DNA of 61,294 nt, the filler included, from Methanobacteriota archaeon (GTDB taxonomy: Archaea > JACRDV01), in assembly GCA_024860865.1 (NCBI GenBank). It is 5 parts of 5 records of this genome, joined end to end, with 100 filler letters (N's around TTAATTAATTAA, not from the genome) between each part and the next. Parts side by side here need not be neighbours in the genome. Positions count along the whole stretch, not along the records: positions 50,546 to 61,294 come from JACRDV010000052.1; 4 more parts are not named here. The stretch is one strand, 5' to 3'. Of the stretch, positions 15,393 through 57,173 are shown in pieces; positions within the stretch are counted from its first letter, which is position 1; each line of letters begins with the position of its first letter. Position numbers and translations under genes: made by a program. Under the pieces are notes generated by a model, which was not told the origin of the DNA, did no database searches, and saw only the letters and a program-made list of their open reading frames with translations.

Positions 15393-15407
15393 TAAATCAG
15401 TATATGC

Positions 15408-15480: not shown

Positions 15481-15542
15481 CTTTTGCCGTTATTAAGGCA
15501 ACCTCGGACACCCAAAATTATAACCATTATAACTATGACACC

Positions 15543-16712: not shown

Positions 16713-16812
16713 NNNNNNNNNNNNNNNNNNNNNNNNNNNNNNNNNNNNNNNNNNNNTTAATTAATTAANNNNNNNNNNNNNNNNNNNNNNNNNNNNNNNN
16801 NNNNNNNNNNNN
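16713..16812. other. Artificial contig linker
   Basis: N-run, TTAATTAATTAA, N-run (stop codons in all frames). Confidence 0.99.
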
Positions 16813-23452: not shown

Positions 23453-24186
23453 TTTCTGCAAGAACAATGGGTGATATAGTGAAACTCGAAAGAAAATATG
23501 CGTTCCTACTACTTTGCGCTTTGTATGTAATAATTCTAATTGGCATGTATGAAGCACTAATAGTTTTAGGGCCACTTAGCCCAGAATCCTTGAGGTGGAT
23601 AGGAGACCCAATGGAGCAAGGTTACAGGATATTTTTTTTCTCAATGCCAAATGCTGCTGTGGTTTATCTTGCATTTTTTGTTATACTAATAGCTAGCATA
23701 ATGTATCTAAGAGATAGACAAATTAGGTGGGATTTAATAGCATCGGGCTCTGCCAAACTCGGTTTAGTGTTTTGCACAATTCTCTTAATCACAGGGTCAA
23801 TATTTTCTAACCTAGCATGGGGTGCATATTGGAACTGGGATCCTCAACAAACAGCGGCACTTGTGCTTTGGTTTATACTCGCTGGCTACCTTTCTTTACG
23901 CTCAGCTATTGAAGACGACGAGGCGAGAGCAAGACTTTCAGCCATATTTGGCATATTTGGATTTTTAGGTGTTCCCTTAAGCTATGTTTCTGCGGTGATT
24001 TGGTCATCTATCCATCCACGATTTGCGACTGGTTTCAGCTTAGATCCCTTAGGTAAATTAGTTACAATAATCATAGTACTTGGCCTTCTCATACTTTTTG
24101 CTTACTTACTTTGGCTCGAAGTTAGCGCCAAAAAACTAGAAAAGGAGTACCAAAGGCTACTGTCTAAAGCTAAGAGAGAGGAGTAA
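23449..24186 (+). CDS. ccmC: Cytochrome c biogenesis protein CcmC
   Basis: WWD motif WGAYWNWDP and SIHP; the first His motif is altered (see findings). Confidence 0.88.
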   Translation: MISARTMGDIVKLERKYAFLLLCALYVIILIGMYEALIVLGPLSPESLRWIGDPMEQGYRIFFFSMPNAAVVYLAFFVILIASIMYLRDRQIRWDLIASGSAKLGLVFCTILLITGSIFSNLAWGAYWNWDPQQTAALVLWFILAGYLSLRSAIEDDEARARLSAIFGIFGFLGVPLSYVSAVIWSSIHPRFATGFSLDPLGKLVTIIIVLGLLILFAYLLWLEVSAKKLEKEYQRLLSKAKREE

Positions 24187-24276
24187 GTATTTGTTAAGTT
24201 AGAATATAACAATTTTCACGATAAAAAACGAATTTTGGAAAAGTTATTTAAATCATATAAAAAATAATAGTTTTCT

Positions 24277-24414
24277 ATGCCTGAGTTTGAGAGCATTCTA
24301 GCAGTAGCAATAATACTGTGGTCTGGTTTAATATTATATGCGATATATTTGGACTCAAGAGTTAGAGATTTGGCCAAAAAAATATCGAATTTGGAAAAAA
24401 TGTTTGAGAAATGA
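24277..24414 (+). CDS. ccmD: CcmD-like small membrane protein
   Basis: 45 aa (MPEFESILAVAIILWSGLIIYAIYLDSRVRDLAKKI...) with one TM and a charged tail, between ccmC and ccmE. Not in the ORF track. Confidence 0.75.
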   Translation: MPEFESILAVAIILWSGLILYAIYLDSRVRDLAKKISNLEKMFEK

Positions 24415-24437
24415 AGTCAGTGACAATTATGGTTAAG

Positions 24438-24833
24438 ATGAGTAAAAACTTAAAAATTGGAATTGGTATTTTGTTAATTGCAGTGTGCATTGCAATTGGA
24501 TATAGCACTGTCTTCAAATTTTTTAATCCATACCATTTTGTCAGCAACTTAACTGCAAATCCAGATCAATATATGAACAAACAAGTGCAAGTAATAGGGG
24601 TTGTAGTTCCGGGCACTATTGAACTGGCTTCTGGTACCTTGAAATTTGATATCACAGATGGTAACTCAAGAATAAAAGTTGCATATGGCGGATCTCCTGT
24701 TCCAATAAGAGAGAGTATAAATGTTGTTGTTATTGGATCACTTATATCCCCAACTCAATTTCAAGCTACAAAAATTCTAACCCAATGTCCATCAAAGTAT
24801 GAACAAACATTAAGCGCTGCTAATAAGACTTAA
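24438..24833 (+). CDS. ccmE: Heme chaperone CcmE, CxxxY type
   Basis: N-terminal TM, OB-fold-like body, ILTQCPSKY (System I* variant). Confidence 0.9.
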   Translation: MSKNLKIGIGILLIAVCIAIGYSTVFKFFNPYHFVSNLTANPDQYMNKQVQVIGVVVPGTIELASGTLKFDITDGNSRIKVAYGGSPVPIRESINVVVIGSLISPTQFQATKILTQCPSKYEQTLSAANKT

Positions 24834-24870
24834 ACAGGCAACCACATGCTACTTTTTTAAATTTTAGGAT

Positions 24871-26856
24871 TTGATAAGAATGACATTAGGGTCTATACTA
24901 TTAATAATAAGCTGGCTTGCTGGTTTTGCATCGTTAGCTTTGCTATTTCTGCTAGATTTGCGTTTTAATGAATACTTGAAAGATAAAACAATAAATTATA
25001 TGATTGAAAGTTTAAAAAATAAATATACAATTTCAATTCGCGCATACACTTTGTTATTAACATCATGTTCTATTCTTCTTTTCAACGCATTTTTATACTC
25101 AGATTTTTCACTTGCGTATGTATTTGAATACAGCAGCTCAGAACTTTTATGGTTTTATAAAATTTCAGCATTCTGGGCAGGAACATCTGGCTCTCTTTTA
25201 TTATGGGCATGGTTGATTTCTCTATTCATTTGGTGGTGGAGTGAAAAAGTAGACTTTAATTCCCAATTTGTTAGAAGAACTACAATTTTTTCAATAATAA
25301 TTGGATTATTTTTCTTAACAATAACGCTGGTTGATTCGCCCTTTAGATCAATCACAGGCTCGGTCCTAGAAAATCTCTGGCGTGCCGGAGTTGATGGGAT
25401 GGGGCTAAACCCTTTGCTTCGTGACCCCTGGATGGTTATTCACCCTCCAATTTTATTCGTTGGATATGCTGCGATAACGCTACCTGCTGCTGCGGCTATT
25501 GCGTATCTAATTAATCCCGATGAAAGTTGGGAAAAACTTACGCGGCAATGGTCTAGAATTGCTTGGATATTCTTGATGGCTGGCATTGCTATTGGCGGAT
25601 TTTGGTCGTATAAGGTATTAGGGTGGGGTGGATTCTGGGCCTGGGATCCAGTTGAAACTACTTCATTCATCCCATGGCTTACGATGACGGCATTTTTACA
25701 CGGAACGGTTCAATACCGCAAGAATAGAAAGTTTAATTTCATAACTCCGCTTTTAGGAATCGTATCACTTCTATTAGTTGTATATGCTACGTTTGTTACT
25801 AGAAGTGGAATTCATGAATCCTTCCATTCTTTTGGCGAAAGTGCTACATCACCATTTTTCTTGATATTTATAGCAGCTGTAATTATTGCAACAATAGCGT
25901 CTGCTATCCGATTTATAAGCAAACAAATAAAATTGACTGGCGAAGAAAGTATTTCGCTACTCTCTAAACAAAATTTAATTTTACTTACAATTATCGCATT
26001 TGTTATGTTAACATTCATATCTTTATGGGGAACAACCTATCCAGTAATTTATGAGATCTTAACAGGCATGAAAATTTCAATTGAAAAATCATTTTTTAAC
26101 TTTTGGAGCCTTCCATTCACTATTATATTGTTTTTAACTATGTGGGCATGCATGTTATTTGGTTTCCTTAAAGAAGGTCTATTAGTAAAAACTTTAATGT
26201 TGTTAATTGCGGCCACAGTAGGTTCTATACTTATCAAACCTACTGAAAATTTCTATGCTAATGCCTTGTTACCCTCAGCATTTCTAGTAATTGGCGGGGT
26301 TATATTTGGGCTATTAAAAATTATTAAAACTCCAAGAAGTTTTGCTAGATCTATTAAATTAATCTCTCCTTATGTGATTCATTTAGGAGTTGCATTTATA
26401 ATAATTGGTATTGTGGTGAGCACGGCATTTCAAAAAGAGATTTTTGAGAAATTTAACATCGGCGAAAATAAAGAAATCGGTCGAGAATACGGTCTGAGTG
26501 TAACTAATATTAGCGCGTATGTTAATTGGCAAGATTTTACTTGGGCACAAAAAACTGATTTATTTTTAAATAAAAACGGTGTTAGAGTTGGAGAAGGTAA
26601 CCCATTAATCTATTATAATTTAAGACCAATGCTGTGGGGGGGCGAGTCAGAGGGTCCCTTCGCAAAAGTATACATCCATCGCACTCTGCTCTTCGATATT
26701 TACGTAGCTTTCGAAGGTGTAGGCTCAGAAGAGGAAATTGAACAAGGTATCCCGTTGAGAATTAAAATGTTTCCACTAGTTAATTTTCTATGGTTTGGGG
26801 TCATACTTGTATCATTAGGTGGAGCGCTGTTGATAATTTCAGAGCCAAAAAAGTAA
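24871..26856 (+). CDS. ccmF: Cytochrome c heme lyase CcmF
   Basis: GLNPLL, HPP, WGGFWAWDPVE, TRSG..SFHSF. Confidence 0.95.
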   Translation: MIRMTLGSILLIISWLAGFASLALLFLLDLRFNEYLKDKTINYMIESLKNKYTISIRAYTLLLTSCSILLFNAFLYSDFSLAYVFEYSSSELLWFYKISAFWAGTSGSLLLWAWLISLFIWWWSEKVDFNSQFVRRTTIFSIIIGLFFLTITLVDSPFRSITGSVLENLWRAGVDGMGLNPLLRDPWMVIHPPILFVGYAAITLPAAAAIAYLINPDESWEKLTRQWSRIAWIFLMAGIAIGGFWSYKVLGWGGFWAWDPVETTSFIPWLTMTAFLHGTVQYRKNRKFNFITPLLGIVSLLLVVYATFVTRSGIHESFHSFGESATSPFFLIFIAAVIIATIASAIRFISKQIKLTGEESISLLSKQNLILLTIIAFVMLTFISLWGTTYPVIYEILTGMKISIEKSFFNFWSLPFTIILFLTMWACMLFGFLKEGLLVKTLMLLIAATVGSILIKPTENFYANALLPSAFLVIGGVIFGLLKIIKTPRSFARSIKLISPYVIHLGVAFIIIGIVVSTAFQKEIFEKFNIGENKEIGREYGLSVTNISAYVNWQDFTWAQKTDLFLNKNGVRVGEGNPLIYYNLRPMLWGGESEGPFAKVYIHRTLLFDIYVAFEGVGSEEEIEQGIPLRIKMFPLVNFLWFGVILVSLGGALLIISEPKK

Positions 26857-30364: not shown

Positions 30365-31627
30365 CTAAGGTATCTCTTTGAAAACCGGAAGTTCTGGGGG
30401 ATTAGTAGAGAGTATCAAAATTATGAGTAAAAAAATTGCGAGGATTTTTCTTTTGTTGTCGATTTTACTTGCATCATTCAGAGGGCGCGGATGTTCATAC
30501 CAAGAAAGCCAAAATACCAATAAAGCCATTATCCACCATCCAGTCATAAAAAGCCAAAAAATAACAGGAAAAGTGAGCCACTTATGCGATTTTGGTCTAA
30601 ATATAGCTCTAGCAACATGACCGCCATCGAGTTGACCAGCTGGCATTAAATTAAGCATAGTAACAATTAACCCTGCCCAACCAGCAAAAGCAAGGGGATG
30701 CAAGTACAAAACTTGCCCTTCTGCTGGACCAAATCCCATTATTTTTGCTAACAACATCATCAATACAGGTATAGGAATACGTATGGCTTCTGCTATAGGT
30801 TCTCCAATTATTGACATTTTAAGACCAATTATCACTATGGGCAAAGTTACTAACAATCCAGCAATTGGCCCAGCAGCTCCTATATCAAATAGAGCCTTTC
30901 TGCTTGGTATTGGCGAGCGCATACTGATAACAGCTCCAAATGTTCCTAGCGGAAATGGTAGTGGAGGAGCTGGAACAAAAAAGGGCAGAGTTGCTTTAAC
31001 ACCGTATTTTCTAGCCATGATTGTATGCCCTAGTTCATGAAAACCAATTATTGCCATTAATCCAAAGGCAAAGAGCAATGCATTCTCAAATTGAGGGGCC
31101 CATCTTTCCGAGAGAATATAGCCAGCAACAAAAGTAGTTCCGAGCGTAACTATCAACAAACCAAGATTTATCAAGGGGCTTCTCATTTTTGGCTCAACTT
31201 TGGGCCTAGGAAGGACAGCAACTAGAAGTTTCCCATTTTCCTCGGCAATCATCGGCAAATATCCGAGATTCGTAAATTTGAGCTTAAGGCGTTCAAACGA
31301 TTGCTCAATATCATAGCGAGGCTGAACTCTAAACAAAACGGCATTATTTTCTATCTTTTTAGAAGCTATTACAAACTCTGCATTTACTGATTGTTCTATT
31401 TGTTCAAGCACAACGAACTCAGGAGCTTTGGTTACGTCACCAGTAAATTCGTAGATACCGGTTATCACTAAGTCGCTCTTGCAGAGAGGACATGCGTTTG
31501 GTAGTGTTTTTCCAACATAATCACCAACACCAAATGGTTGGAGTTTAGAATATTTACAAGAGATGCACTTGATCTCACTGGCTGTTTGTGTCTTTTCTTG
31601 TTTCTCTTTTGTGCCCAAACTATTCAC
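30365..31627 (-). CDS. Site-2 protease (M50) with N-terminal zinc ribbon
   Basis: [23 protein letters not shown]-terminal CISC...CPLC. Confidence 0.92.
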
Positions 31628-32027
31628 CTATTTCTACTGTTCCCTCGGTAGCATTCACCCTCACAAAATTATTTGTTTTAATTACTTCAACTGGATTTTG
31701 GTCAAGCTTATCTATTAATGGAATGTTTGATATAATTGCTCCAATTGCAACTATTGGTTCAGCTTCATAATTAATTATTGCTTTAGGAGCGGTTCCAATT
31801 TTTTTCATTTGAAATAGGACATATGAACCTACAGTTGATCCTTTGCCGAATGGGAACACTATGATTTTGTTTGTTATATTTTTGTTTTTAAGCTCATGCG
31901 TTCTTTCTATTATTGTCCCCGTTTTGGGGTCGACACTTCCTAGAAACGAGATTGGCTTTGATGTAACCAGCGCATGGCCTTCAGCAGTTCCCTTTGAAAT
32001 ACATCTGCCTCTAAGAATAACTTTCAT
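31620..32027 (-). CDS. Aconitase X small subunit (DUF126; phosphomevalonate dehydratase small subunit-like)
   Basis: [20 protein letters not shown]. Confidence 0.88.
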
Positions 32028-32553
32028 TTGAATCCCCCGTTTAATGCTACTTGAAGGCAATTAGATGTTGATACGAATGCCACGTCGGTTTTGCAAAGAG
32101 AAGGTGCATAGTGAGCAGCTTTTGCTGAATTTGTAACTATATTTTTGATTCCTAACTCTTCCACAGGTGAAACAATCATACAGGTATCACAAAGGACTTT
32201 TCCGCCAGCTTTTTCGATGACCTCAACCTCATATTTTGCTTTTTCTTTTATAGCTCTTGAAGTGCAAACCCAAAGTTGAGTTTTCACGCGCTTTCCCCTC
32301 AGTTCATTTGCAATAGCACTTAGTTCTTTTGCCGAGCAGTGAGGACAACCAATTGCTACTAAATCAATATTCTTTGGTCTAGAAGAAGTTAATTTTTCGT
32401 ATGTTTTATCTATTTCAGCTTTACTAACTGTAACTCGCTCGATTTGTTTCTCTTTAAAGATTTTTTTCTCTAATTTAGCTTCCGGTGTTTCACCGAGTAC
32501 ATGGTAAAGCGCAATAGCTCCCCCGGCTGCAAGTGCAGCGCCTAATGCTTTAT
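32024..32553 (-). CDS. Aconitase X large subunit (DUF521), 5' partial
   Basis: [10 protein letters not shown]...[32 protein letters not shown]. Confidence 0.88.
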
Positions 32554-32653
32554 NNNNNNNNNNNNNNNNNNNNNNNNNNNNNNNNNNNNNNNNNNNNTTA
32601 ATTAATTAANNNNNNNNNNNNNNNNNNNNNNNNNNNNNNNNNNNNNNNNNNNN
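32554..32653. other. Artificial contig linker
   Basis: N-run with TTAATTAATTAA. Confidence 0.99.
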
Positions 32654-32853
32654 TAAATGAAGATTTAAGCGATTATATCTGCAAATTTGCTTATGGAAAA
32701 GAGCAGGCAACATTTGTTTGTGAAAGTACACTTGTTCCAGGGAAAGTAATAGAAAGTGGTTTAGGGCATCCTGCCTTTACTAAAGTACTCGAAGAATATC
32801 TAAGAAGTAAGGGAGCAAAAATAATAATTTTAACTGAAGAAGAAAAGACTTAA
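32654..32853 (+). CDS. Hypothetical protein, tandem paralog of 32913-33152, 5' partial
   Basis: NEDLSDYICKFAYGKEQATFVCESTLVPGKVIESGLGHPAF...EEEKT*. Confidence 0.7.
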
Positions 32854-32912
32854 TTTTAGCAAAATTTACATTTCTTTAACCATGTTAAACAATTTATTAA
32901 AGAGAGACCAAC

Positions 32913-33152
32913 ATGGCCAATAAAAAAGATAACCAAACTAGAAATCTCAAAATAAATGAAGATTTAAGCGATTATATCTGCAAATTTGCTTATGGAAAAG
33001 AGCAGGCAACATTTGTTTGTGAAAGTACACTTGTTCCGGGGAAAGTTATAGATAGCAACTTAGGTCAACCTACTTTTGTTAAAGTTATCGAAGAAGATTT
33101 AAGAAAAAGAGGCGCAAAGATAGTCATTCTAACTGAAAAAGAAAAGGCCTAA
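32913..33152 (+). CDS. Hypothetical 79-aa protein
   Basis: ORF whose paralog directly upstream keeps the same frame, which supports coding status. Confidence 0.75.
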   Translation: MANKKDNQTRNLKINEDLSDYICKFAYGKEQATFVCESTLVPGKVIDSNLGQPTFVKVIEEDLRKRGAKIVILTEKEKA

Positions 33153-33826: not shown

Positions 33827-35503
33827 TCATTGTGCTCTTTCTAATTTTTCACGCATTTTTCTGATTGAAGTTTCGTCAACTTTATTAAATAATATTGTCG
33901 GCTCCATTATTTTATGTCCCGAAGGAATTTGATTTAGCGCTTCTTCCCAGGTTTGCTCATGAATACTTCCAGGTTGATTTAATAGGCTCCATATTTTTTC
34001 CGCTGTAAATGGAAGAAAGGGCTCTAACAAAATAGCAAGTGCCTTAGTTATTTGTATAGAAACGAAAAGAGCATTAGCCGCTATCTCCGGGTTAGTTTTG
34101 ATAGTTTTCCACGGTTCTTTATCATTTATGTATTTATTCCCAACTCGCGCTATTTCAAGCACGGTTGAAAGTGCAGCCTGAAGTTTAAATTTTTCTATGT
34201 TAGATGCAACTTCCTTTTGTTTAGTTTTAATTAACTCTAAGACTTGTCTATCATAATCATCAAATTCACTTGGTTTAGGCACGGTTGCATTAAAATAGCG
34301 GTAGATAAACACTAGCGTTCTGTGCAGGAAATTTCCTATTGTATCATTTAAATCTGAATTTACTTTTTCAATAAATGTTTGCCATGTAAAACTAGCATCT
34401 TTAGTTTCTGGTCTAATAGAAATCAAAACATATCTCCAATAATCAGTTGGAAACATATCTAATGCTTCATCAATCCAGACCCCAATTCTCCGGCTTTTTG
34501 AGAATTTTTGTCCTTGAATCATTAAGAATTCAGTAGAATTTACAGCCCAAGGCAAAACATAGCCTTTTTTAGCAGCCATCAATAAAGCAGGGAATATCAG
34601 GGTATGGAATGGTATGTTATCCTTCGCTATGAAATATAGCGTTCTAGTTGAGCTATCTAACCAACGTTCTTTCCACTTGTCCAACCTACCTTTATTTTGG
34701 AAATACTCCACAGTCGCTGAAATGTACCCCAACACAGCTTCCATCCAAACATAAATGGTTTTGTCTTCAGCACCTGGAAATGGTGCAGGGATACCCCACG
34801 CACTATCGCGAGTTAGTGAGCGCGGCCTTAATCCCTCTTTTATCAAGTTTAAGCTGAAATTTATTGCATTTTCAGATAAGTTCTCATTTTGAACAATATA
34901 GTTGTATAATTCTTCAGAAAATTTAGGCAAATCAAAGTACCAATGTTTTGTTACTTTCGGTATAGGTGTAGTTCGACAGATTACACAATATGGAGTTATT
35001 AATTTGACAGCTTCTAAAAGACGCCCGCATTCATCACATTGATCCCCGCGCGCTTCTTCATATCCACAATGTGGGCACTTACCTTCTACAAATCTATCCG
35101 GTAAAAATCGATTGCATTTTGGGCAGAAAAATAACTCAGTATCTTCAGTGAATATATATCCATTTTTTTGGACTTCTAGATAAAATTCTCGTACAAACTT
35201 CTTATGAATTTCATTTTCTGTGCGAGTATAATTGTCGAAGGATATTCCCCATTTTTGAATAAGTTCTTTGACTTTTTTGTGATTCTTATCTGTCAGTGCT
35301 TTAGGGTCCATTCCTTGTCTTACAGCTTCAACTTCAATAGGGGTTCCGTGTTCATCCGACCCGCTTACGAATACTATGTCTTCCCCTTTTAACCGCAAGT
35401 ACCTCGCAACTATATCTGCTGATAACATCGAACCAATCATAGTTCCTAGGTGTGGCATATAGTTAATATACGGCCAAGCCGCTGTGACTACCCATTTTAC
35501 CAT
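33827..35503 (-). CDS. metG: Methionyl-tRNA synthetase (short form, no C-terminal OB domain)
   Basis: AWPYIN..PHLG, GSDEHG, Zn knuckles, KDNIPFH, KFSKS. Confidence 0.97.
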   Translation of the reverse strand: MVKWVVTAAWPYINYMPHLGTMIGSMLSADIVARYLRLKGEDIVFVSGSDEHGTPIEVEAVRQGMDPKALTDKNHKKVKELIQKWGISFDNYTRTENEIHKKFVREFYLEVQKNGYIFTEDTELFFCPKCNRFLPDRFVEGKCPHCGYEEARGDQCDECGRLLEAVKLITPYCVICRTTPIPKVTKHWYFDLPKFSEELYNYIVQNENLSENAINFSLNLIKEGLRPRSLTRDSAWGIPAPFPGAEDKTIYVWMEAVLGYISATVEYFQNKGRLDKWKERWLDSSTRTLYFIAKDNIPFHTLIFPALLMAAKKGYVLPWAVNSTEFLMIQGQKFSKSRRIGVWIDEALDMFPTDYWRYVLISIRPETKDASFTWQTFIEKVNSDLNDTIGNFLHRTLVFIYRYFNATVPKPSEFDDYDRQVLELIKTKQKEVASNIEKFKLQAALSTVLEIARVGNKYINDKEPWKTIKTNPEIAANALFVSIQITKALAILLEPFLPFTAEKIWSLLNQPGSIHEQTWEEALNQIPSGHKIMEPTILFNKVDETSIRKMREKLERAQ

Positions 35504-35722: not shown

Positions 35723-36106
35723 TTGATAGAGAGTTGTTTAAAAAGAATTAAAGAGCTAATTAAATTGCAACAGCAAAAAACTGAGATCGCTTCGATACAG
35801 GATTTTGAAAAACTTGATATTAGAGTAGGACAAATCCAAATGGCCGAGGCAGTTAAAGGCTCAACTAAACTCTTGCGGTTAGAGATAAATATCGGAGAAA
35901 AAACTATCCAAACAGTGGCAGGAATTGCTGCTGCTTATAATAAAGAGGAACTTTTTAATAAAAAAGTAGCTGTCCTGACCAATCTTCAACCAACAGAGAT
36001 ATTTGGAGTTCTTTCTGAATGTATGGTTTTAGCAGCAATCGAAGATAAAAATATAGTTTTGTTAGTTCCAGACAAAAACGTCAAAATAGGAGCTAAGATT
36101 AGATAA
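35723..36106 (+). CDS. Stand-alone tRNA-binding OB-fold protein (MetRS C-terminal/Trbp111-like)
   Basis: DFEKLDIRVG, KLL, VAGI, NLQP..IFGV.SE.M; divergent from metG. Confidence 0.85.
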   Translation: MIESCLKRIKELIKLQQQKTEIASIQDFEKLDIRVGQIQMAEAVKGSTKLLRLEINIGEKTIQTVAGIAAAYNKEELFNKKVAVLTNLQPTEIFGVLSECMVLAAIEDKNIVLLVPDKNVKIGAKIR

Positions 36107-43511: not shown

Positions 43512-44243
43512 CTAAACTTGCTCAAATTTCACAAATGCCCCATTACTAAAAATAGGAACAACATCGGTTAAATTAGCTTTTGAGCAATATTCAATATCTT
43601 CAATATTTTTAAAGGATTTTAATCTTTCACCCGTTTCCGAGCTTTCAATGAAACTCTTAATTTTATTTTGGTCATAATTAGCATAAATAGCGGCAGATTT
43701 TGCCCTTTCAGTTAACTGGTTGATTTCAAATCGACTCGCAATTAAACCCGCTCCAATCCAATCCTCAATTGCAAATTTTCCGATCCTTCCAACTGCCAAA
43801 ATAGTGACGTTAGTTCGATATTTATTTGCAAGGGTTTTAGCTACATTTGCTACTGCATATGTATTGATAAGAGCACCGATTAAAATTTCCTTAGCAAAGG
43901 GCTTAATTGCATTTATTGCTCTAGTACCATTTGTAGTGGTTAAAACTATTGTTTTATTTTTAACATCGCTTTTTGAAAGCTTAGCTGGAGAGTTGTTTAA
44001 ATCAAAAGTAGGTATTTCTACTCCAAATCTTTCTCCAGCAAGAATTGCACCCTCAAATTCTTTAGCAATTGTCTTGGCTTCCTCGATATCGCCAACAGCG
44101 ACTACTCTTTGGGCTCCATTTGCTAAAGCTGTTATAATAGTTGAGCTCGTTCTTAAAACATCAACTAAAATGAAAATATTTCGATCAAAAAAAGGTTGTG
44201 CTTCAAGATAAGGGATAGCGTCAATAACAATATCAAAGGCCAA
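43512..44243 (-). CDS. comB: 2-phosphosulfolactate phosphatase
   Basis: DVLRTSSTI, GER, NSP, TTTNGT, ED..GAG. Confidence 0.92.
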   Translation of the reverse strand: MAFDIVIDAIPYLEAQPFFDRNIFILVDVLRTSSTIITALANGAQRVVAVGDIEEAKTIAKEFEGAILAGERFGVEIPTFDLNNSPAKLSKSDVKNKTIVLTTTNGTRAINAIKPFAKEILIGALINTYAVANVAKTLANKYRTNVTILAVGRIGKFAIEDWIGAGLIASRFEINQLTERAKSAAIYANYDQNKIKSFIESSETGERLKSFKNIEDIEYCSKANLTDVVPIFSNGAFVKFEQV

Positions 44244-44259
44244 CTTAAACTCCTATTTA

Positions 44260-45042
44260 CTATTTGTTTAGCACGTCTGCCCTTAAACCTCGGCGAAGGG
44301 TTTCAAGTGGAATCACTTCTTCAGGTCTAATGTTTCCTAAGTTTACATCAGGTCCAAACCTTTTAATTAAAAACACTTGTTGGTTCTTCAATGGGGCTTC
44401 AAAAATTAAATCCTTAATGTCAACTTGTTTAACTATTGATATTACTCGAGGAAGCACGACCTCTCCATGTTCATTAAAAATACCTGTTGTTCCAGTTTCT
44501 CTAGCCTCAAGCGATACTTTTTCCGCTCCTAAATTGAGATATTCTTTTATTAATCTAATTCGCTCGTCAACTGTAATAGTTTGATCTTTTTCATAGCTTT
44601 TTTTTCCCACTTCAGCAAAAACTTTAAACCCAAGGCTTTTTGCAGTTTTAAGTATTTCGCTTCTTTGCTCCGGTGTTAGATCTATTACGCCTTCAGAAAT
44701 CTCAAATGCAGTTAATCCAAGTTCTTTTACCTCTGTTAAAAAATTCTTAACTTTACCCTGTAAAAGCGCTATTTCAAAGGAAGTTCCACCATTCATCACA
44801 TAAATTTTATTTTTTCTATAAAGTTCAATTTTTTGTTTGAGTAAATCTTTTGAAAATAGTTGCCATGTTCCCCAACCAAGTTTTATAACATCGATAAATT
44901 CTCCTGCTGTTGAAAGTAAATCTTCGGCGCCACGAATTCCCAATCCTTTATCTAGAACTATGGTGAGGCCTTGAGCCCTTGGTTTTGAGTTCCGGTTAGG
45001 AACTTGTATATCGCCTAAAATTGTCCTCATTTTAAACCTCAT
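44260..45042 (-). CDS. comA: Phosphosulfolactate synthase
   Basis: KPR..GLT.V.DKG, KLGWGT, EVGKK, EARE.G, FEAP.K.QQ, VNLGNI, LETLRRGLR.D. Confidence 0.95.
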   Translation of the reverse strand: MRFKMRTILGDIQVPNRNSKPRAQGLTIVLDKGLGIRGAEDLLSTAGEFIDVIKLGWGTWQLFSKDLLKQKIELYRKNKIYVMNGGTSFEIALLQGKVKNFLTEVKELGLTAFEISEGVIDLTPEQRSEILKTAKSLGFKVFAEVGKKSYEKDQTITVDERIRLIKEYLNLGAEKVSLEARETGTTGIFNEHGEVVLPRVISIVKQVDIKDLIFEAPLKNQQVFLIKRFGPDVNLGNIRPEEVIPLETLRRGLRADVLNK

Positions 45043-45077: not shown

Positions 45078-46478
45078 CTAGTTTTTCTTAAGGAGATCTT
45101 TAAGTTCTAGGATAACATAGCCTTGCTTGGAAAGTTCTTCTTTACCTTGGACCTTCTTGGCGAACAGGCCCAAGTATTCTGTCCGGTTTTCTTTCCTCCA
45201 TCTAAAGTCTTGAACCTTTCGCTCGAGCATTTGAAGTATCTTTTTGGCCTCAGCCTCTTTTAGACTGCTCCACTTTACTTCGAAGAACATTGCCGAGGGT
45301 TGGGCTTCATCTAGGGCTACACCATCGATTTCTATGTCTCTAAACCACCATCTTCCCACACTTTTCGGACGGATGGGCAAAAGGCCCTTTACTGTGAGGT
45401 GCCATAGGTTTTCTCTGAAAAGCTGCTCAAAGACTGTTCCAAGGTATACTTTATAGTCCCGTTGTACTTTCTCTATGATTGGCCCTATGTTCCCTAGCTC
45501 TAAGTCGGATTTGTTTGGGAAGAGGTATCGGAACCAGAAGGCCATGTAGGGATCGGCTATGCAATGGAGGGCCTTCCGTGGCTTAAGCCTCTCTCCGACT
45601 GGGTAGAGACGCTCCACCCAACCAAGTTCTTCCAGCACATTCACATATTTTGAAAGGAGGCTTTTTTCAAGACCTGTAGAGTTAGCTATCTCGCCGAAGG
45701 ATGATGCGCCTAAGGCTACGGCCCTGAGTATGGCTGAGTAGAACCTTGGCTCACGAAGCTCCTCCCTAAGCAGAAACTCAGCCTCACCATAGAGGAACTC
45801 CCCTTTCCTAAGGAACCTTTCCGATACGTTAGCCCAAAAGGAAACGTTGGGGTCGAACTTGAGGAGATACGCTGGAATCCCGCCGAGGCACCCGTAAACC
45901 CTGACGAGATCTTCTTCACTGTATTTGGGGAAGAACTCACTGAGGTATTGGAAACGTAAAGGTATGAGCTTCCATTGCCCAGTCCTTCTGCCGTAGAGAG
46001 GACTTCTGTAGCCCAACACCTCTGTCTCCATTATGCCCACGGATGAACCGAGGAGAATGAGCATAACTCGGCTGTTTTTAAGCTTCAGGTCCCAGATCTT
46101 CTGAAAAATAGACGGTATGGCCTTGTTGCCCTCGATGAGAGCGGGAAACTCGTCTAGGGCTACAATGATCCTGCCTCCCTTCCACCATTTTAGGAACTCT
46201 TCAAAAAGCTCCAGCCAGCCTTTCACCTCGAGCTTTGCGAAGGATTCATCTTTAAGCACCTGGGCCATTTTTGCTCGTAACTCGAGAAGTAGGTCCTTTT
46301 CAGGTCTCCTATCAGCCAGAAAATATAGAGCGGGCTTTCCCTTGATGAATCTTGCGACAAGCTCGGTCTTACCGACCCTTCTACGCCCATATATAACTAC
46401 AAGCTCGGGGCCCGTAGTATTGAATTTTTCCTCTAAGAACTGGAGCTCTTGATCCCTATTAACGAATAGTTGAATCAT
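45078..46478 (-). CDS. Archaeal ATPase with DUF234 and C-terminal nuclease-like domain
   Basis: FVNR..EL, YGRRRVGKT, DEFP, FEQ, WW...EID, FEVKW; visibly more GC-rich than its neighbours. Confidence 0.9.
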   Translation of the reverse strand: MIQLFVNRDQELQFLEEKFNTTGPELVVIYGRRRVGKTELVARFIKGKPALYFLADRRPEKDLLLELRAKMAQVLKDESFAKLEVKGWLELFEEFLKWWKGGRIIVALDEFPALIEGNKAIPSIFQKIWDLKLKNSRVMLILLGSSVGIMETEVLGYRSPLYGRRTGQWKLIPLRFQYLSEFFPKYSEEDLVRVYGCLGGIPAYLLKFDPNVSFWANVSERFLRKGEFLYGEAEFLLREELREPRFYSAILRAVALGASSFGEIANSTGLEKSLLSKYVNVLEELGWVERLYPVGERLKPRKALHCIADPYMAFWFRYLFPNKSDLELGNIGPIIEKVQRDYKVYLGTVFEQLFRENLWHLTVKGLLPIRPKSVGRWWFRDIEIDGVALDEAQPSAMFFEVKWSSLKEAEAKKILQMLERKVQDFRWRKENRTEYLGLFAKKVQGKEELSKQGYVILELKDLLKKN

Positions 46479-46732
46479 GAGTATAATACTCGTAATTCAA
46501 CTATTTAAGCTTAAGGTCCATGTTGACGACAACGATTGATCGGGATGCGATGCGGCCTCTTTATGTGTTTTTGTGGTTGAAGATCAAAACCTCCAGTTAT
46601 ATTCTTAAGAATACTTCATCCTCTGCATTGTCTTTCAATTCCCTTTTAATGGGATTTACCTTTTACATTCCATTGGAAAGTACAAAAGTTAAAGTCTACA
46701 TTAAGCGAATTAGCTATAGGTATTTGGATACC

Positions 46733-47233
46733 ATGAAAAAAAGCACTTTGGCAATCCTTCAGGGATTAAAAAGCGTAGGCATCAACTTTATCGTGAGTTT
46801 TCCATGCGTTTTACTAGAAGAGGTTATCAGAGCAATCGATTCAGAAAGAACTTTTAAGCACGTTCGTGTTACAAGAGAGGAAGAAGGGGTCGGAATTTCT
46901 GCAGGAGCCTACTTGGGTGGAAAAAAACCAGCTATATTAATGCAAAATTCCGGTTTAGGCAATTCAATAAATGCATTTGCTTCTTTGATTAATTTTTATA
47001 GAATTCCGTTGCTTCTATTAATAAGTCATAGAGGGGTTTTAGGTGAAGAAGTAGCAGCTCAAATTCCAATGGGTTTAGCTACGCCAAAGTTGCTCCAGGT
47101 ATTGGGAATTCCTTTCTTTGAACCCTTTTCAGCTGAAGAAATAAGTAAAACAATAAAAAAGGCTCAAGCTGTTGCTGAGTCCAATCAAAAACCTTTTGCA
47201 ATCTTATTAACTAAACCGGTGTTGGCAAAGTGA
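46733..47233 (+). CDS. comD: Sulfopyruvate decarboxylase alpha subunit
   Basis: PC, REEEGVGISAGAYLGG, MQNSGLGNS, SHRG...E...AQ.PMG. Confidence 0.85.
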   Translation: MKKSTLAILQGLKSVGINFIVSFPCVLLEEVIRAIDSERTFKHVRVTREEEGVGISAGAYLGGKKPAILMQNSGLGNSINAFASLINFYRIPLLLLISHRGVLGEEVAAQIPMGLATPKLLQVLGIPFFEPFSAEEISKTIKKAQAVAESNQKPFAILLTKPVLAK

Positions 47234-47796
47234 AAAGATTCGATGCAATTAAATCCATTGTTGAAGAATTAACTGATGAACTCGTTGTTTGTAATTTAGG
47301 TTATCCATGTCGCGAACTTTTTGCTATAAAAGATTCTCCAACTCACTTTTATATGCTCGGAAGCATGGGCTTGGCTTCTTCTATTGGATTGGGACTAGCT
47401 CTAGCTCTTCCCAAACGCAAAATTATAGTGTTAGATGGAGATGGGAGCTTATTGATGAATCTAGGCTCGTTTGCCACAATTGCAAATCAAAATCCAAGCA
47501 ATTTGGTATTAGTTGTTTTAGATAATGAAGCCCATGGTTCAACTGGTTTCCAACCTACTGCTACGGGAGGTTTAACTGATCTTGAAAGAGTTGCAAAAGG
47601 TGCAGGAATCGCAAATTCAATTACAGTAAAGAATAAGAAAAACCTTAAAAATTCATTAAAAAAAGCATTAAGAGACAAACAGATGCATCTAATTGTTGTG
47701 AAAATTGAAAAAGGAAATGCTAATGTTCCGCACGTCAATTTATCTCCTATTGAGATTAAAAATAGATTCATAAACGAAATAAAAAAATCAAAATAA
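47230..47796 (+). CDS. comE: Sulfopyruvate decarboxylase beta subunit
   Basis: NLGYPCREL, FYMLGSMGLASSIGLG, DGDGSLLMN, DN..HGSTG.Q. Confidence 0.88.
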   Translation: MKRFDAIKSIVEELTDELVVCNLGYPCRELFAIKDSPTHFYMLGSMGLASSIGLGLALALPKRKIIVLDGDGSLLMNLGSFATIANQNPSNLVLVVLDNEAHGSTGFQPTATGGLTDLERVAKGAGIANSITVKNKKNLKNSLKKALRDKQMHLIVVKIEKGNANVPHVNLSPIEIKNRFINEIKKSK

Positions 47797-50174: not shown

Positions 50175-50445
50175 TTAGCTTAATATCATTCGCGCATCTA
50201 TTGCTAATACACCATGATTTTTCTCATATACAAATAGTGGATTAACATCTAGCTCTTTTATTTGTGGTTGTTCGATCGCAAGTCTAGAAATCTTGAGCAA
50301 AGTATCAACAATCGCTTCGATATCAGCAGGCGGCCTCCCTCTAAACCCTTTTAAAATTGGGTATCCTTTTATCTCTTGAATCATCTCTTGAGCATCAGTT
50401 TTAGCAATTGGTGCAACTCTCATTGAAACATCTCTCATTATTTCT
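50175..50445 (-). CDS. ADP-forming acyl-CoA synthetase beta subunit, C-terminal partial
   Basis: DVS.RVAP, L.GFRG.PPAD, ELDVNP, DAR. Confidence 0.85.
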
Positions 50446-50545
50446 NNNNNNNNNNNNNNNNNNNNNNNNNNNNNNNNNNNNNNNNNNNNTTAATTAATTA
50501 ANNNNNNNNNNNNNNNNNNNNNNNNNNNNNNNNNNNNNNNNNNNN
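50446..50545. other. Artificial contig linker
   Basis: N-run with TTAATTAATTAA. Confidence 0.99.
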
Positions 50546-50674
50546 CCCCTCCGGGGAAATAAGACTGTTGTTTATCCAGTTCTTTTGTTGAAGGGATAAT
50601 TGTTGTTTTTATTTTTTAACAATATTAGAAATTCTAAATTGATCCTATGTCAACAATTAAATGATTCTACTTAA

Positions 50675-53616: not shown

Positions 53617-53726
53617 TTAGGAAACTTACTTACGACTTTTTAATAAGACAATAAGTTTTTATCTAAATGATGTGCTATTCACTCAAGATTAATAGCAATT
53701 GGAAATTAAAATATGAAGGTATTCTA

Positions 53727-54917
53727 TTGAAATACGATTATCCTGACAAATATGGTAGATTCGGAAAGTTTGGCGGGCAATATGTGCCCGAAGTATTAAT
53801 GCCTGTGATCCAAGAATTGACTGGAGCTTATGAAAAACATAAAAAATCTGCAAGTTTTAAAGACGAGCTATCTTATTATCTCAAGGATTATGCTGGAAGA
53901 CCAACTCCACTTTATTTTGCAAGAAGGTTGACTGAAAGACTTGGTGGACCAAAAATTTACATAAAAAGAGAAGACCTTGCGCACGGAGGTGCTCATAAAA
54001 TTAATAACACCCTCGGACAAGTTTTGCTCGCTAAAAAAATGGGAAAAACTAGAGTGATTGCAGAGACCGGAGCTGGGCAGCATGGTATTGCAACAGCTAT
54101 GGCAGCAAGTATGTTCGGTTTGAAGTGTGAGATTTACATGGGCACTGAAGATATGGAGCGCCAAAAACTAAACGTTTTTAGAATGGAATTAATGGGAGCA
54201 GAATTACATCCTGTATCAAGTGGAACTAAAAGGCTAAAAGATGCAATTGATGATGCAATGCGGGACTGGGTTACAAACGTTGAAACAACTTACTATGTGA
54301 TTGGTTCAGTTGTGGGGCCACATCCATATCCTATGATGGTTAGAGATTTCCAAAGTGTGATTGGAAAAGAAACGAAACAGCAAATTATGGAAAAGGAAAA
54401 CAGATTGCCGGATGCAATTGTTGCGTGCATTGGTGGCGGGTCAAATGCAATGGGGATATTCTATAATTTTATAGAAAATGAAGAAGTAGGATTGATTGGA
54501 GTCGAAGCTGGAGGCCTTGGTCCAGAACCTGGTAAGCATGGAGCTACTTTATGTTATGGAACTGAAGGCGCGCTCCATGGATCTTACTCCTATGTCCTTC
54601 AAAATGGCAGCGGTCAAATTTTAGATTCACACTCAATTGCAGCTGGACTTGATTACCCAGGGGTTGGACCTGAGCCTGCATTTCTAAAATCAATAGGTAG
54701 ATTAAAAGCAGTATCGATAACTGATGCTGAAGCTGTTAAAGGATTTCAATTATTATGCGAAACAGAGGGAATTTTGCCTGCACTAGAATCTGCGCATGCA
54801 ATTGCTTATACAGAAAAAATTGCAAAAAATTATGATAAGAACCAAATTGTAGTGATTAATCTCTCTGGCCGTGGAGATAAAGATGTTGAAGTTGTTGCAA
54901 AGTACTTAAGTAAATGA
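53727..54917 (+). CDS. trpB: Tryptophan synthase beta chain
   Basis: [48 protein letters not shown]; probable TTG start. Confidence 0.97.
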
Positions 54918-55013: not shown

Positions 55014-55275
55014 AGTTGTCCCCTCGGAGGCTTGGAACACTTTCGATCGAAATCCTCCAAATCGAAAACCAGGTAGCCTTCTTCCCTCATTTTCTCTTTT
55101 TCACCGATTTTTTAGCTATCAGCCCGTAGAATTCCTTCCTTTTTCCAAGAAGTATAGTCCTCCTAGTCTTCCCAACCCTTCTAGCGTATATGGCGGTGAT
55201 CCAAAGTTTTCTCTTTGAGAGTTCCTCTATCTCTGATAGGGTTTTGAGTTCGGTTTCCCTGTCGATAAATCTCAT
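55014..55275 (-). pseudogene. Internally deleted archaeal ATPase relic
   Basis: N-terminus FIDRETEL...RRVGKT is joined to C-terminus EFYGLIAKK...EGYLVFDLEDF; same family as 45078-46478. Confidence 0.7.
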
Positions 55276-55389: not shown

Positions 55390-55656
55390 ATGGTTGAAAT
55401 AGTTGAAGCTGACAGGTCCGGAAGGATAGTAATCCCCAAAAGCCTACGTAAAGAGTTCGGCATCCAGGAGAGGACGAAATTTCTCCTGACCAAAAGAGGC
55501 GCGGGGCAGCTGCTGCTCCAAAAGCTGGATGTTGAGGAGATAGCTCGGAGGCTTGAGGAAGAGCTATCTGGGGAAAACGTCGATGCCGCAGTCAAAACTA
55601 TCAGGAAGGAAATCCGTGCGAAAATCAAGGCGAAATACCCGGACCTTCTTGCTTGA
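55390..55656 (+). CDS. AbrB/MazE-type antitoxin
   Basis: DRSGRIVIPKSLRKEFGI. Confidence 0.88.
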   Translation: MVEIVEADRSGRIVIPKSLRKEFGIQERTKFLLTKRGAGQLLLQKLDVEEIARRLEEELSGENVDAAVKTIRKEIRAKIKAKYPDLLA

Positions 55657-56056
55657 CACCAATGTGTTCATATCCGCAATAAAGGAGCCCAAAAAACAGA
55701 CGGCGGCCTTAAAACTTATCCTTAAGATAGCGGAAGACCCAAGCATAAAGCTAGTTGGAAATGATCTTTTGGCCGAGGAAATGCTCCGCTACATCGAGCT
55801 CTTGAAATCCGAGACAGCTGTTATGATCCTTTCGACATTGTTGGCCAAGATGGAAATCGTCAAAGTTTCTGGGAACTACAGAAAAATATGCAAGATATAT
55901 ATCGAAACGCCCGACAAGGCAGATATTCTGCATGCTGCAACTTGTTTGCAAACAGGTTCTATTCTGATAACAAATGACCGTCACTTCGATAAGATAGCCG
56001 ATGAACGCATAATCGATGTATGGAACATCGGCGAGGCCCTCAAGAGGCTACTTTAG
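55553..56056 (+). CDS. PIN-domain toxin
   Basis: LLDTNVFI, D..HAA, LITNDRHF; the true start is probably near 55620. Confidence 0.85.
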   Translation: MRKSYLGKTSMPQSKLSGRKSVRKSRRNTRTFLLDTNVFISAIKEPKKQTAALKLILKIAEDPSIKLVGNDLLAEEMLRYIELLKSETAVMILSTLLAKMEIVKVSGNYRKICKIYIETPDKADILHAATCLQTGSILITNDRHFDKIADERIIDVWNIGEALKRLL

Positions 56057-56200
56057 TTCCCATTTCTGGCGCCGATTTTGAATTTTTAAGTGGGGTCGCC
56101 TAGCTTGTAATTTTCATTTGCACCATCCCAGATCAACATTAAATTTAAAATCCAATATAGAACAAACTTGCATCTACGTTAGCGAAGAGAGAGTGATTGG

Positions 56201-57021
56201 ATGTCTCGTATAGAAAACAAGTTCAAAGAACTTAAAGAGCGAAGAGAAGGCGCGCTAATCCCTTATATAACATTAGGCGATCCTTCTATAGAAAAAAGCA
56301 TAGAAATTGCCCAAGCATTAGGGTCTAAAGCGGACATACTTGAACTCGGTATACATTTGCGCTAGAGCGCATATGGCCGAAACCGTTTTCAGATCCAATT
56401 GCAGACGGCCCGACTATTCAAGCTTCGGCTCAAAGGGCTTTAAAGGCAGGAATGATGCCTAAACTAGCTTTTGAAGCTGTTAAAAAAATTAAATCACCTA
56501 TCCCAATTGTATTCCTAACTTATTACAATATTATTTTGAGATACGGAATTGAAAAATTTGTAAAAGATTGCAAAAATTCAAACGTTGATGGCTTAATAGT
56601 AGCAGAGTTACCTATTGAAGAGGCAAATAGCCTTTACAATGCATGCAAAGATAATGATGTTGATTTAATTTTCTTGATTGCTCCAACTACAACTGAAGAG
56701 CGCCTTAAGAAAATTATTGATAAGGCAAGCGGGTTTTTGTATTTAGTTTCATTGCTCGGAGTAACAGGAGTTAGAGAAACTGTTGGTGAGATTACTAAGA
56801 AAACGATTGCAAGAGTTATAAAATATACTAAAGGCAGAATTCCAGTTTGTATTGGGTTTGGTATTTCAAAACCAGAACATGTGAAAGAGGTTATTCAAGC
56901 GGGAGCAGAAGGAGCAATTGTAGGAAGTGCCTTGGTCAAGTTGATTGAAAGAGAAGAAAAATTAGAGAAAATTGTTGAGTTTGTCTCTCAATTAAAAAGT
57001 GGTTCTAGATTTACTGTTTAG
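56201..57021 (+). CDS. trpA: Tryptophan synthase alpha chain, split by a 29-nt insertion: join(56201..56352,56382..57021), 263 aa
   Basis: Exon 1 reads MSRIENKF...PYITLGDP...ILELGI. Exon 2 reads PFSDPIADGPTIQ...YYN...GVTG...GFGIS...IVGSA. Both parts are otherwise intact. Confidence 0.92.
56353..56381 (+). other. Putative bulge-helix-bulge mRNA intron in trpA
   Basis: CGGT/GCCG 4-bp helix, 3-nt bulges ATA and AAA, inner hairpin CATTTGCGC-TAGA-GCGCATATG. Removal restores the frame exactly. Confidence 0.82.
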
Positions 57022-57023
57022 TG

Positions 57024-57173
57024 CTAAAGCTCTTTTTTAAGGACTTTATAGATTACATAAGCAAGAACTAAAATTACTATTAGCACAACTATTTCCCATA
57101 GAAATTTAACTACCACAGCAGCTATTATTAGAGCTAAAATTATCAGAATAAAGTCGCGAAAAGTTAAAGGCAT
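57024..57173 (-). CDS. Small membrane protein (49 aa)
   Basis: MPLTFRDFILIILALIIAAVVVKFLWEIVVLIVILVLAYVIYKVLKKEL*; AGGT upstream. Confidence 0.65.
   Translation of the reverse strand: MPLTFRDFILIILALIIAAVVVKFLWEIVVLIVILVLAYVIYKVLKKEL

Follow-up and report, generated by a model that had tools for sequence, protein, structure and literature searches.

A 29-nucleotide insert in trpA of a Bathyarchaeia-like archaeon, probably an mRNA intron of the relaxed bulge-helix-bulge type

Introduction

How can a tryptophan synthase gene that is broken within its invariant active-site motif, by an insert that brings in a stop codon, still bear the marks of a working gene? This question is raised by trpA (56201–57021, + strand) on a stretch of 61,294 nt from the archaeal assembly GCA_024860865.1, the whole of which is called the window here. 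A run of 29 extra nucleotides (56353–56381) breaks the gene within the motif ELG-I-PFSDP. A preliminary description of the locus had proposed that these nucleotides are an intron flanked by a motif of the bulge-helix-bulge (BHB) kind, to be removed from the mRNA by the tRNA-splicing endonuclease EndA. Of several possible explanations, we favour this one in the form of a relaxed motif (HBh', that is a central helix H, one bulge and an intronic helix h'), where EndA would make the cuts and RtcB would join the exons, and we put its probability at about 0.75.

Structure of the interrupted gene

Exon 1 (56201–56352, + strand) opens with the ATG and includes, at its end, the leading AU of codon 51, an Ile codon that is split, while exon 2 (56382–57021, + strand) begins with the third base of that codon and continues into PFSDP. 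In the unspliced message, the exon-1 frame runs through ...ADILELG into I-H-L-R and stops at TAG 56363–56365, which leaves an open reading frame (ORF) of 54 aa; a second frame, from 56383, reads PFSDPIADGP... as far as the stop TAG 57019–57021. The preliminary description had been right both about this stop and about the exact number of extra nucleotides, as in a DNA alignment 10/10 of the best class-level trpA homologues lack these 29 nt in a single clean gap that separates GGTAT from ACCG.

Joining 56201–56352 to 56382–57021 gives 792 nt that encode a TrpA of 263 codons, with the G-I-P-F junction that had been foreseen and with no other lesion. The Pfam profile Trp_syntA is matched from position 1 to 44 on exon 1 and from 46 to 248 on exon 2, and as these segments abut across the join, a single profile position remains for the split Ile codon. 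An Ile at the junction agrees with the TrpA consensus I/L/V, and the exon-2 part is 49–59% identical to many full-length TrpAs of 258–284 aa. The intervening sequence (+ strand) would thus be a phase-2 intron, although, because of an A/A ambiguity at its boundaries, excision of 56354–56382 instead would lead to an identical product.

The footprint of a transposon or of a miniature inverted-repeat transposable element was considered as the origin of the insert and rejected. No direct repeat or target-site duplication flanks it, and a 26-mer of the insert has no match, even when 3 mismatches are allowed, in the 14 genomes of the nearest order (0/14). The preliminary description had named a 29-mer recurring as a repeat among the findings that would speak against an intron; within the window, to which this result applies, it occurs once, allowing up to 3 mismatches. 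An Rfam search of 56150–56550 gave no match at E values up to 1.

The insert in independent sequence data

An error of assembly or sequencing would be the simplest explanation of a frame-breaking insert, and the window, which we read as a scaffold, does contain runs of N. Independent data were therefore consulted in the form of Logan contigs, built independently, from four public runs (X1, X2, X3 and X5), which were aligned to 56100–57060. In X2, which belongs to a different study, a contig of 3113 nt covers 56141–57060 with 34 substitutions (3.7% of sites) and 0 gaps, and between 56244 and 56411, insert included, it is without any substitution relative to the window. A contig of 1764 nt with the insert present, 3 substitutions and 0 gaps comes from X1, possibly the sample that the window itself derives from. 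Among the contigs there is none that is joined across the site without the 29 nt. Short contigs from other organisms align only from 56382/56383 on, their ELG-I/L codons being uninterrupted before that point, and the pieces from X3 and X5 lie outside the insert, save for ~40-nt bits of the trpA of other organisms.

We conclude that the insert is real DNA, because a contig that differs at 3.7% of sites has it unchanged. Public gene calls break the X2 copy like that of the window, into P0241 (54 aa) and P0001 (189 aa) on the 3113-nt contig. Two runs from two studies thus contain the insert, and the same break is seen in the separately predicted proteins P0001, P0241 and P0242 (the latter from a diverged relative, described below). 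It is extremely unlikely that an artefact lies behind it.

Selection on trpA and a diverged relative with the same interruption

Real DNA might equally belong to a dead gene. In such a pseudogene, the frame would have been destroyed by a hairpin-forming insertion of 29 nt, the cell would rely on uptake of tryptophan or on indole via TrpB alone, and any likeness to a BHB motif would be coincidental. The insert does disrupt the frame and add a stop codon; the locus is also disturbed, since a vapBC-like gene pair, together with a fragment of an ORF, has entered the interval between trpB and trpA, and Pfam searches of the window found no further trp gene besides these two. The substitutions within the gene tell otherwise. 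Between the spliced coding sequences of the window and X2 there are 24 synonymous and 8 non-synonymous differences (32 coding ones among 33 listed), and the ratio of non-synonymous to synonymous substitution rates (dN/dS) is 0.089 (dS 0.149, dN 0.013; 177.7 synonymous and 611.3 non-synonymous sites; binomial p = 4e-10). When exon 2 is read in the two wrong frames, values of 1.26 and 1.96 are obtained. The translation rebuilt from the X2 differences includes P0001 exactly, and no further stop or frameshift occurs in the 263 codons of either strain. From the dN/dS of 0.089 we conclude that the interrupted trpA is under purifying selection; relaxed selection, which the preliminary description had listed as a ground for abandoning its proposal, was not seen.

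Further evidence comes from short relatives of the 54-aa exon-1 ORF, of which there are three: P0241, which is the X2 copy, P0242 and P0243. P0242 is a 55-aa ORF on a 7151-bp contig of the European Nucleotide Archive, has 69% identity to exon 1 and ends in ...ADILELGIHMR-stop, the corresponding end in the window being ...ADILELGIHLR-stop. Since a read-through into I-H-(L/M)-R-stop cannot be coincidence, we infer that in the P0242 lineage, too, this site holds an insert, whose first ten bases are almost unchanged. Relative to the window, its exon 1 shows 16 substitutions and one indel of a whole codon, in frame, and it has kept 11/11 of the conserved exon-1 columns (at least 90% conservation among 60 full-length TrpAs), as has the window. 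The sole change inferred for the intron of P0242 replaces U by A at 56357 (Leu UUG to Met AUG). The intronic stem described in the next section is mismatched at this position alone, and an A-U pair would result there, provided that the 3' arm is unchanged. P0243 was rejected as a carrier, as it has a frameshift after ELGIPF and comes from another organism.

Because P0242 shares the interruption, the insert is old relative to the divergence of the strains, and this argues strongly against a decaying pseudogene. With the dN/dS and the exon 1 of P0242 still open at 69% identity, and with an insert that lacks a target-site duplication and has a geometry expected by chance at a rate of only ~1e-3 (see below), we consider a pseudogene unlikely.

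Predicted fold of the pre-mRNA

In the pre-mRNA, CGGU (56347–56350), the last four bases of exon 1 before the Ile codon, is predicted to pair with GCCG (56376–56379), which lies within the intron and close to its 3' terminus, to form the central helix H (4/4 pairs, one of them G.U). AUA (56351–56353) would thereby be exposed as a 3-nt bulge, with a predicted cut at AU/A, and be backed by the intronic hairpin h' (56354–56375), whose stem of nine positions (56354–56362/56367–56375) has 8/9 base pairs, the exception being the mismatch U57xU72. The hairpin loop UAGA (56363–56366) contains the in-frame stop TAG. The second cut site would lie four base pairs off on the opposite strand, in a looser context: the 3' cleavage region (56380–56384) consists of AAA, with a predicted cut at AA/A, followed by CC, and forms a loop rather than a strict 3-nt bulge. 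These pairings and coordinates (central helix, bulges AUA and AAA, a stem with 8 of 9 pairs, UAGA loop) are those of the preliminary description and are correct, as is its remark that the outer exon–exon helix is imperfect and the motif relaxed. Exon-1 segments within 56327–56345 could close the 3' side by pairing of AAAGCGG (56327–56333) with CCGUUUU (56383–56389) or of GAAC (56342–56345) with GUUU (56385–56388). Closure of AAA then requires extra unpaired bases (GAAC/GUUU) or a non-contiguous strand (56327–56333 with 56383–56389).

According to the excerpts of PMC7714728, each 3-nt bulge of the strict motif (hBHBh') is closed by an outer helix with at least two Watson-Crick pairs, h being exonic and h' intronic. 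The relaxed form is described, in the available part of PMC5829648, as having H, one intact 3-nt bulge and h', with the other site a disrupted bulge or a loop. The trpA insert has the 4-bp central helix (CGGU/GCCG), and it agrees with the relaxed form, termed HBh' or bulge-helix-loop (BHL), in combining H, an intact 5' bulge and h' with a second site that lies in a loop.

The BHB core (H plus intronic stem) has a calculated free energy of −14.4 kcal/mol, compared with −10.0 kcal/mol for the hairpin alone. For a 71-nt segment the minimum free energy (MFE) is −18.9 kcal/mol (z = −2.1), and −18.1 kcal/mol when the core is enforced, a structure that has a fifth pair (U46–A80), an AACC bulge and the GAAC/GUUU outer helix. 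CGGU has a rival partner in ACCG (56382–56385), a pairing that excludes the BHB fold and that belongs to the MFE structure of the 71-nt segment. In contexts of 131 and 231 nt the core is within the MFE structure and the competing CGGU/ACCG helix is not favoured; here the exon–exon helix 56327–56333/56383–56389 is present, with 13 unpaired nucleotides facing AAA.

The geometry of the insert is unlikely to have arisen by chance. For a fixed interval of 29 nt, a 4-bp helix H together with an intronic helix of at least 3 bp at the required register was found at 142/122,448 window positions (1.2e-3) and in 87/100,000 shuffles of 56330–56400.

Cleavage by EndA takes place after the second nucleotide of the bulge, as the preliminary description had stated. 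A single control bears on this rule, a hand-checked tRNA-Ile intron at the canonical position in a related genome designated G443, which fits only that register: a cut after nucleotide 2 alone gives a 5-bp anticodon stem and the best H. ARAGORN had been tried first as a control for cut geometry, and it reported no intron-bearing tRNA in 39 loci. In its intron mode, applied to G443:C1:1-398100 (L177–L196), it placed putative introns in 9/13 tRNAs, several of them at non-canonical positions, and the boundaries of these 9 did not fit strict geometry. In trpA any symmetric cut takes out 29 nt, as expected of a BHB intron and in keeping with the 263-codon ORF, and whether the cuts follow bulge nucleotide 2 or 3 makes no difference to the mRNA, in which the junction codon is Ile.

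We envisage that a hetero-oligomeric (alpha-beta)2 splicing endonuclease would cut at AU/A and AA/A, that the exons would be joined by RtcB, and that the 29-mer would probably be circularised. The mature mRNA would then be translated into a normal TrpA of 263 aa with ELG-I-PFSDP restored, while an unspliced mRNA would give only the 54-aa peptide.

A hairpin and a stop codon between two open frames might also be dealt with by the ribosome, either by a −1/+2 frameshift within 56344–56362, which would add ~10 residues to the active-site loop, or by a bypass over the hairpin in the manner of gene 60. The exon-2 frame is indeed open from 56344, TGA 56341–56343 being the last upstream stop, the hairpin is stable, and the stop codon lies in the gap. 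A slippery heptamer of the type X XXY YYZ is, by reading, absent from 56344–56365, and the product of a frameshift would have its ~10 extra residues between ELG and PFSDP, where 10/10 homologues show no variation in length and 10/10 class loci have a fixed spacer of 3 nt. Translational bypass of the T4 gene 60 type requires that the take-off codon, for which GGU and AUA are the candidates, match the landing codon; CCG 56383 is preceded by AAA, which matches neither, and GGC 56375–56377 is out of frame. We regard recoding of either kind as very unlikely, even though cbf5 introns, too, were first mistaken for frameshift sites according to the excerpts of PMC2738675.

It is also conceivable that trpA is expressed by machinery other than EndA and RtcB, that is by a different structure-specific nuclease plus a ligase, or as two separate TrpA fragments. 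Selection indicates a working gene and the present data do not single out an enzyme; moreover, the 3' site departs from a canonical bulge. The 5' site, on the other hand, is a textbook H-B-h' arrangement, and no other archaeal system is known to us in which short RNAs are cut out at hairpin-flanked bulges exactly 4 bp apart. If the protein were split, translation in the exon-2 frame could begin at ATG 56452 at the earliest, which is downstream of the loop PFSDPIADGP, and a C-terminal fragment made separately would be without that loop. Other machinery is thus quite unlikely.

Host lineage and candidate splicing enzymes

Splicing by EndA presupposes a suitable enzyme, and hence the identity of the host matters. 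That the window is archaeal follows from an Archaea_SRP RNA at 11646–11954. The top named matches to its methionyl-tRNA synthetase (MetRS) are all from Bathyarchaeia, Bathyarchaeota or Thermoproteota, with 60–69% identity. When 401 genomes of the phylum were sampled, those with the closest MetRS (63–65%) proved to belong to one order of 14 genomes, where the best TrpA match (58%) is found as well. The host, a member of a groundwater community, looks like a Bathyarchaeia-type archaeon of the TACK group (Thaumarchaeota, Aigarchaeota, Crenarchaeota and Korarchaeota), from a lineage that must be poorly represented, given that the best matches reach only these values.

The five genomes nearest by MetRS, used as a proxy for the host, all have two separate genes of the EndA family (5/5) and RtcB (5/5). 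The first EndA paralogue has its best matches among structures in PDB with 3p1z_B, 3ajv_B, 2cv8 and 2zyz_B; aligned to 3p1z_B, it is gapless through the region of the crenarchaea-specific loop, with Lys at the K44 position, and [PS]KPK is present at the loop in 5/5 sequences. The second is nearest to 5x89_A and 1a79_A, and its catalytic His is, by eye, absent. The crenarchaea-specific loop is located in the excerpts of PMC3241643. As far as the available parts of PMC5829648 and PMC7714728 go, introns of the HBh', hBH and BHL types are cut only by (alpha-beta)2 and epsilon2 enzymes, the broad specificity is conferred by the loop lysine, and (alpha-beta)2 EndA is typical of TACK archaea, under which a footnote of PMC7714728 lists the Bathyarchaeota.

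Search for other carriers

When TrpA exon 2 was compared with 401 genomes of the class, 192 matched, and 150 of these matches were listed and inspected. All of the listed matches have open frames of at least 252 aa, with three exceptions (G578, G558 and G656). The short frames of G558 and G656 are due to contig ends, not to introns. In G578, another genome of the Bathyarchaeia class (L099; G578:C15:147600-149600, minus strand), there is no intron either: a 2-nt insertion (AG), three codons upstream of ELG at about nt 773–776 of the reverse complement, makes this a plain frameshift, an error or a pseudogene.

A contig scan with exon 2 confirmed no relative that carries the insert. A contig scan with an alignment termed A1 gave at least 80 loci, all with identities of at most 52% and none of them close, and a metagenome scan with an exon-1 alignment (A2) gave 65 loci with at most 60% identity, of which 63 are uninterrupted at the site and 2 end before it. 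The reading into the intron start was found in 0/14 genomes of the order and in 0/401 genomes of the class, the latter being those of the TrpA search. A further search used the gap pattern; as a control, this pattern matched the window, and its flanks matched 10/10 class loci and 39/80 diverse loci. Eight MetRS matches with an internal stop, among the 401 genomes of the phylum, were rejected as candidates, since natural C-terminal stop codons had been read through.

Another shortened TrpA, P0256, is an ORF of 195 aa on a 59,303-bp contig of the Joint Genome Institute and has the same conserved Met start as P0001. It comes from another lineage, being 60–64% identical to other (euryarchaeal-type) TrpAs and 53% to the window; its upstream part must be interrupted somehow, because the start lies inside a long contig.

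With no other carrier among the sampled genomes and loci, the trpA intron looks like a lineage-restricted gain; the excerpts of PMC2738675 on cbf5 offer a parallel.

The preliminary description had further suggested that other apparent pseudogenes of this genome may hide micro-introns. This finds no support, as nothing comparable was detected in the window; a window-wide scan for HBh' motifs that merge ORFs was uninformative, its 1147 candidates being mostly fusions of neighbouring genes.

Evidence for and against splicing

Several observations weigh against a spliced intron. Within the 71-nt segment the competing CGGU/ACCG (56382–56385) helix has a probability of 0.70–0.76, compared with 0.24 for H. 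The exonic helix amounts to 0 bp at the canonical register and the 3' site is in a loop; the strict hBHBh' form is not attained, because of this missing helix and because the 3' AAA is unclosed. Pfam searches found no gene for EndA or RtcB in the window, so that the enzymes are known here from relatives alone, and these relatives, at 63–65% MetRS identity, are distant. An insert at the trpA site is present in none of the 150 listed among 192 TrpA matches in 401 class genomes, and the gap pattern in 0/401 phylum genomes.

The comparison with X2 has weak points of its own. One of its 34 differences is unlisted and was left uncounted. The differences form clusters, 20 of them lying in 56676–56826, and three tracts of 139–168 nt have none; for this reason the unchanged intron of X2 is no sign of constraint. 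Taken from X2 alone, a recent insert could have spread between strains via a recombination tract, and the difference-free tract around the insert would be just that, which would suit a pseudogene. It would also suit a pseudogene that an exon-2 partner of P0242 is not among the best 120 exon-2 matches; the P0242 gene could be cut by a contig end, or could have decayed downstream.

We nevertheless retain the proposal that trpA is interrupted by a relaxed BHB intron and depends on tRNA-type splicing. Its support comes from indirect tests: the independent DNA, the selection on the gene, the interruption shared by P0242, the geometry and the enzymes of relatives.

The trpA neighbourhood and other features of the window

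The genes trpB and trpA are neighbours in many organisms. In the window, trpB (53667–54917, + strand; 416 aa, PALP domain) is the upstream partner of trpA, with the vapBC-like pair between them. This pair (55390–56056, + strand) consists of an ORF of 88 aa for an AbrB/MazE-type antitoxin and, overlapping it, an ORF of 167 aa (as listed) with a PIN domain. An ORF of 62 aa on the opposite strand (55087–55275, − strand) has no Pfam match and resembles, by eye, the N-terminus of an archaeal ATPase family gene at 45078–46478; it may be a gene fragment left between trpB and trpA.

In the region 13880–16391 a tRNA-Val gene (15408–15481) has on one side a DDE transposase of 503 aa and on the other a tyrosine integrase of 282 aa; this is probably an element integrated at a tRNA gene. 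Adjoining the integrase is a GTPase of the EF-Tu family (16765–17712, − strand) of only 315 aa, with GTP_EFTU and domain 2 and no match to domain 3, which may be truncated. The MetRS (33827–35503, − strand) is without the C-terminal tRNA-binding domain that is fused to it in many relatives (650–690 aa); a separate PF01588 gene of 127 aa (35723–36106, + strand) adjoins it on the opposite strand.

Genes for cytochrome c maturation (ABC ATPase, CcmB, CcmC-like, CcmE, CcmF) are found at 22031–26856 (+ strand) and 12535–13080 (− strand), alongside an ORF that weakly matches MtrC/MtrF-like multihaem proteins; the genome that contains them is Bathyarchaeia-like. Genes of the coenzyme M biosynthesis type, located at 43512–45042 (− strand) and 46520–47796 (+ strand), comprise ComA (phosphosulfolactate synthase), ComB (2-phosphosulfolactate phosphatase) and two halves of a thiamine pyrophosphate enzyme that resemble sulfopyruvate decarboxylase. 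The runs of N, on which the reading as a scaffold is based, are at about 32555–32650 and about 50445–50550; the first interrupts an ORF beside an AcnX swivel-domain gene (31620–32060) and the second a 104-aa ORF. Two tandem ORFs of 83 aa (32602–32853 and 32901–33152, + strand) have near-identical sequences.

Significance and comparison with known systems

Introns of this sort are very rare in archaeal protein genes. If the insert is spliced, trpA would be the second case of this kind within a coding sequence; the gene is a metabolic one, and its TACK lineage differs from that of the first case. In the excerpts of PMC2738675, PMC7714728 and PMC10485636, cbf5 is the only gene whose coding sequence is reported to undergo archaeal mRNA splicing by the endonuclease, HVO_1309 having its intron in the 5' untranslated region (UTR); the introns of other archaeal protein-coding genes are merely predicted (PMC2738675, in part). 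The preliminary description had likewise named crenarchaeal cbf5 as the classic EndA-spliced archaeal mRNA intron. The preliminary description knew of no trpA intron, and our literature search likewise found no report that joins tryptophan synthase and the bulge-helix-bulge motif, nor a census of BHB introns in mRNAs of metagenomes; Watanabe 2002 and Yoshinari 2006 may list more predicted introns.

Splicing of trpA would mean that tRNA-type splicing of mRNA is no curiosity of cbf5, as it would affect a core enzyme and have been kept across substantial divergence. It would provide a minimal natural substrate, of 29 nt, for recognition of non-tRNA targets by an EndA of broad specificity, and would bear on how introns in protein genes could originate before a spliceosome. 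There is a practical consequence as well: reconstructions from metagenome-assembled genomes would wrongly score tryptophan synthesis as broken, because gene callers split trpA into ORFs of 54 aa and 189 aa.

The closest counterpart is the cbf5 intron of Crenarchaeota (Desulfurococcales, Sulfolobales), which, like that proposed for trpA, is short, lies in the coding sequence and is flanked by a BHB motif that is frequently relaxed (excerpts of PMC2738675 and PMC10485636). The same excerpts describe hosts with (alpha-beta)2 EndA, lineage-restricted gain and loss, and a history of being first taken for a frameshift or a pseudogene. Unlike cbf5, which specifies an RNA-modification enzyme, trpA codes for a metabolic one; its host is Bathyarchaeia-like and not one of the Thermoprotei, its intron splits an invariant active-site motif, and it is known here from sequence alone.

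The intron of HVO_1309 in Haloferax volcanii resembles that of trpA in being BHB-flanked and in an mRNA; the splicing endonuclease cuts it out, and it has been obtained as circular RNA (PMC7714728, available part). Short RNAs are, according to that paper, under-represented in circRNA-seq. It differs from the trpA insert in its length of 46 nt, in its position in the 5' UTR, where no reading frame is interrupted, and in being served by a euryarchaeal enzyme (PMC7714728, available part). The fold predicted for trpA is also like that of the non-canonical tRNA introns (HBh', hBH, BHL) of TACK archaea and of ARMAN (archaeal Richmond Mine acidophilic nanoorganisms), which have in common with it that a helix of 4 bp and a closing helix accompany a single proper 3-nt bulge, the second site being in a disrupted bulge or a loop, and whose cleavage depends on the specificity loop of an (alpha-beta)2 or epsilon2 EndA (PMC5829648 and PMC3241643, in part). 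Unlike these, the trpA intron resides in an mRNA, with no tRNA body to aid recognition.

Outside the Archaea, the HAC1/XBP1 messages of eukaryotes contain a very short, frame-shifting intron that is cut out at stem-loops by a protein endonuclease, IRE1, after which a tRNA ligase joins the exons. Without splicing, the message yields a different or truncated product, and the system operates as a regulated stress switch. The trpA insert is likewise very short and frame-shifting, and its unspliced product is truncated. The endonuclease proposed for it is the tRNA-splicing enzyme and not IRE1, and regulation as a stress switch is a feature of HAC1/XBP1. One could nonetheless imagine the trpA intron as a switch, set by the balance between the splice-competent fold and the nearly isoenergetic CGGU/ACCG (56382–56385) fold, and similar micro-introns could be what makes genes elsewhere in this uncultured TACK lineage look like pseudogenes. 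We consider such a switch improbable; if it did exist, the amount of TrpA would be set post-transcriptionally through splicing by EndA and RtcB, and an amino-acid biosynthesis gene would provide an archaeal counterpart of the unconventional HAC1/XBP1 splicing that is mentioned in the excerpt of PMC13149111.

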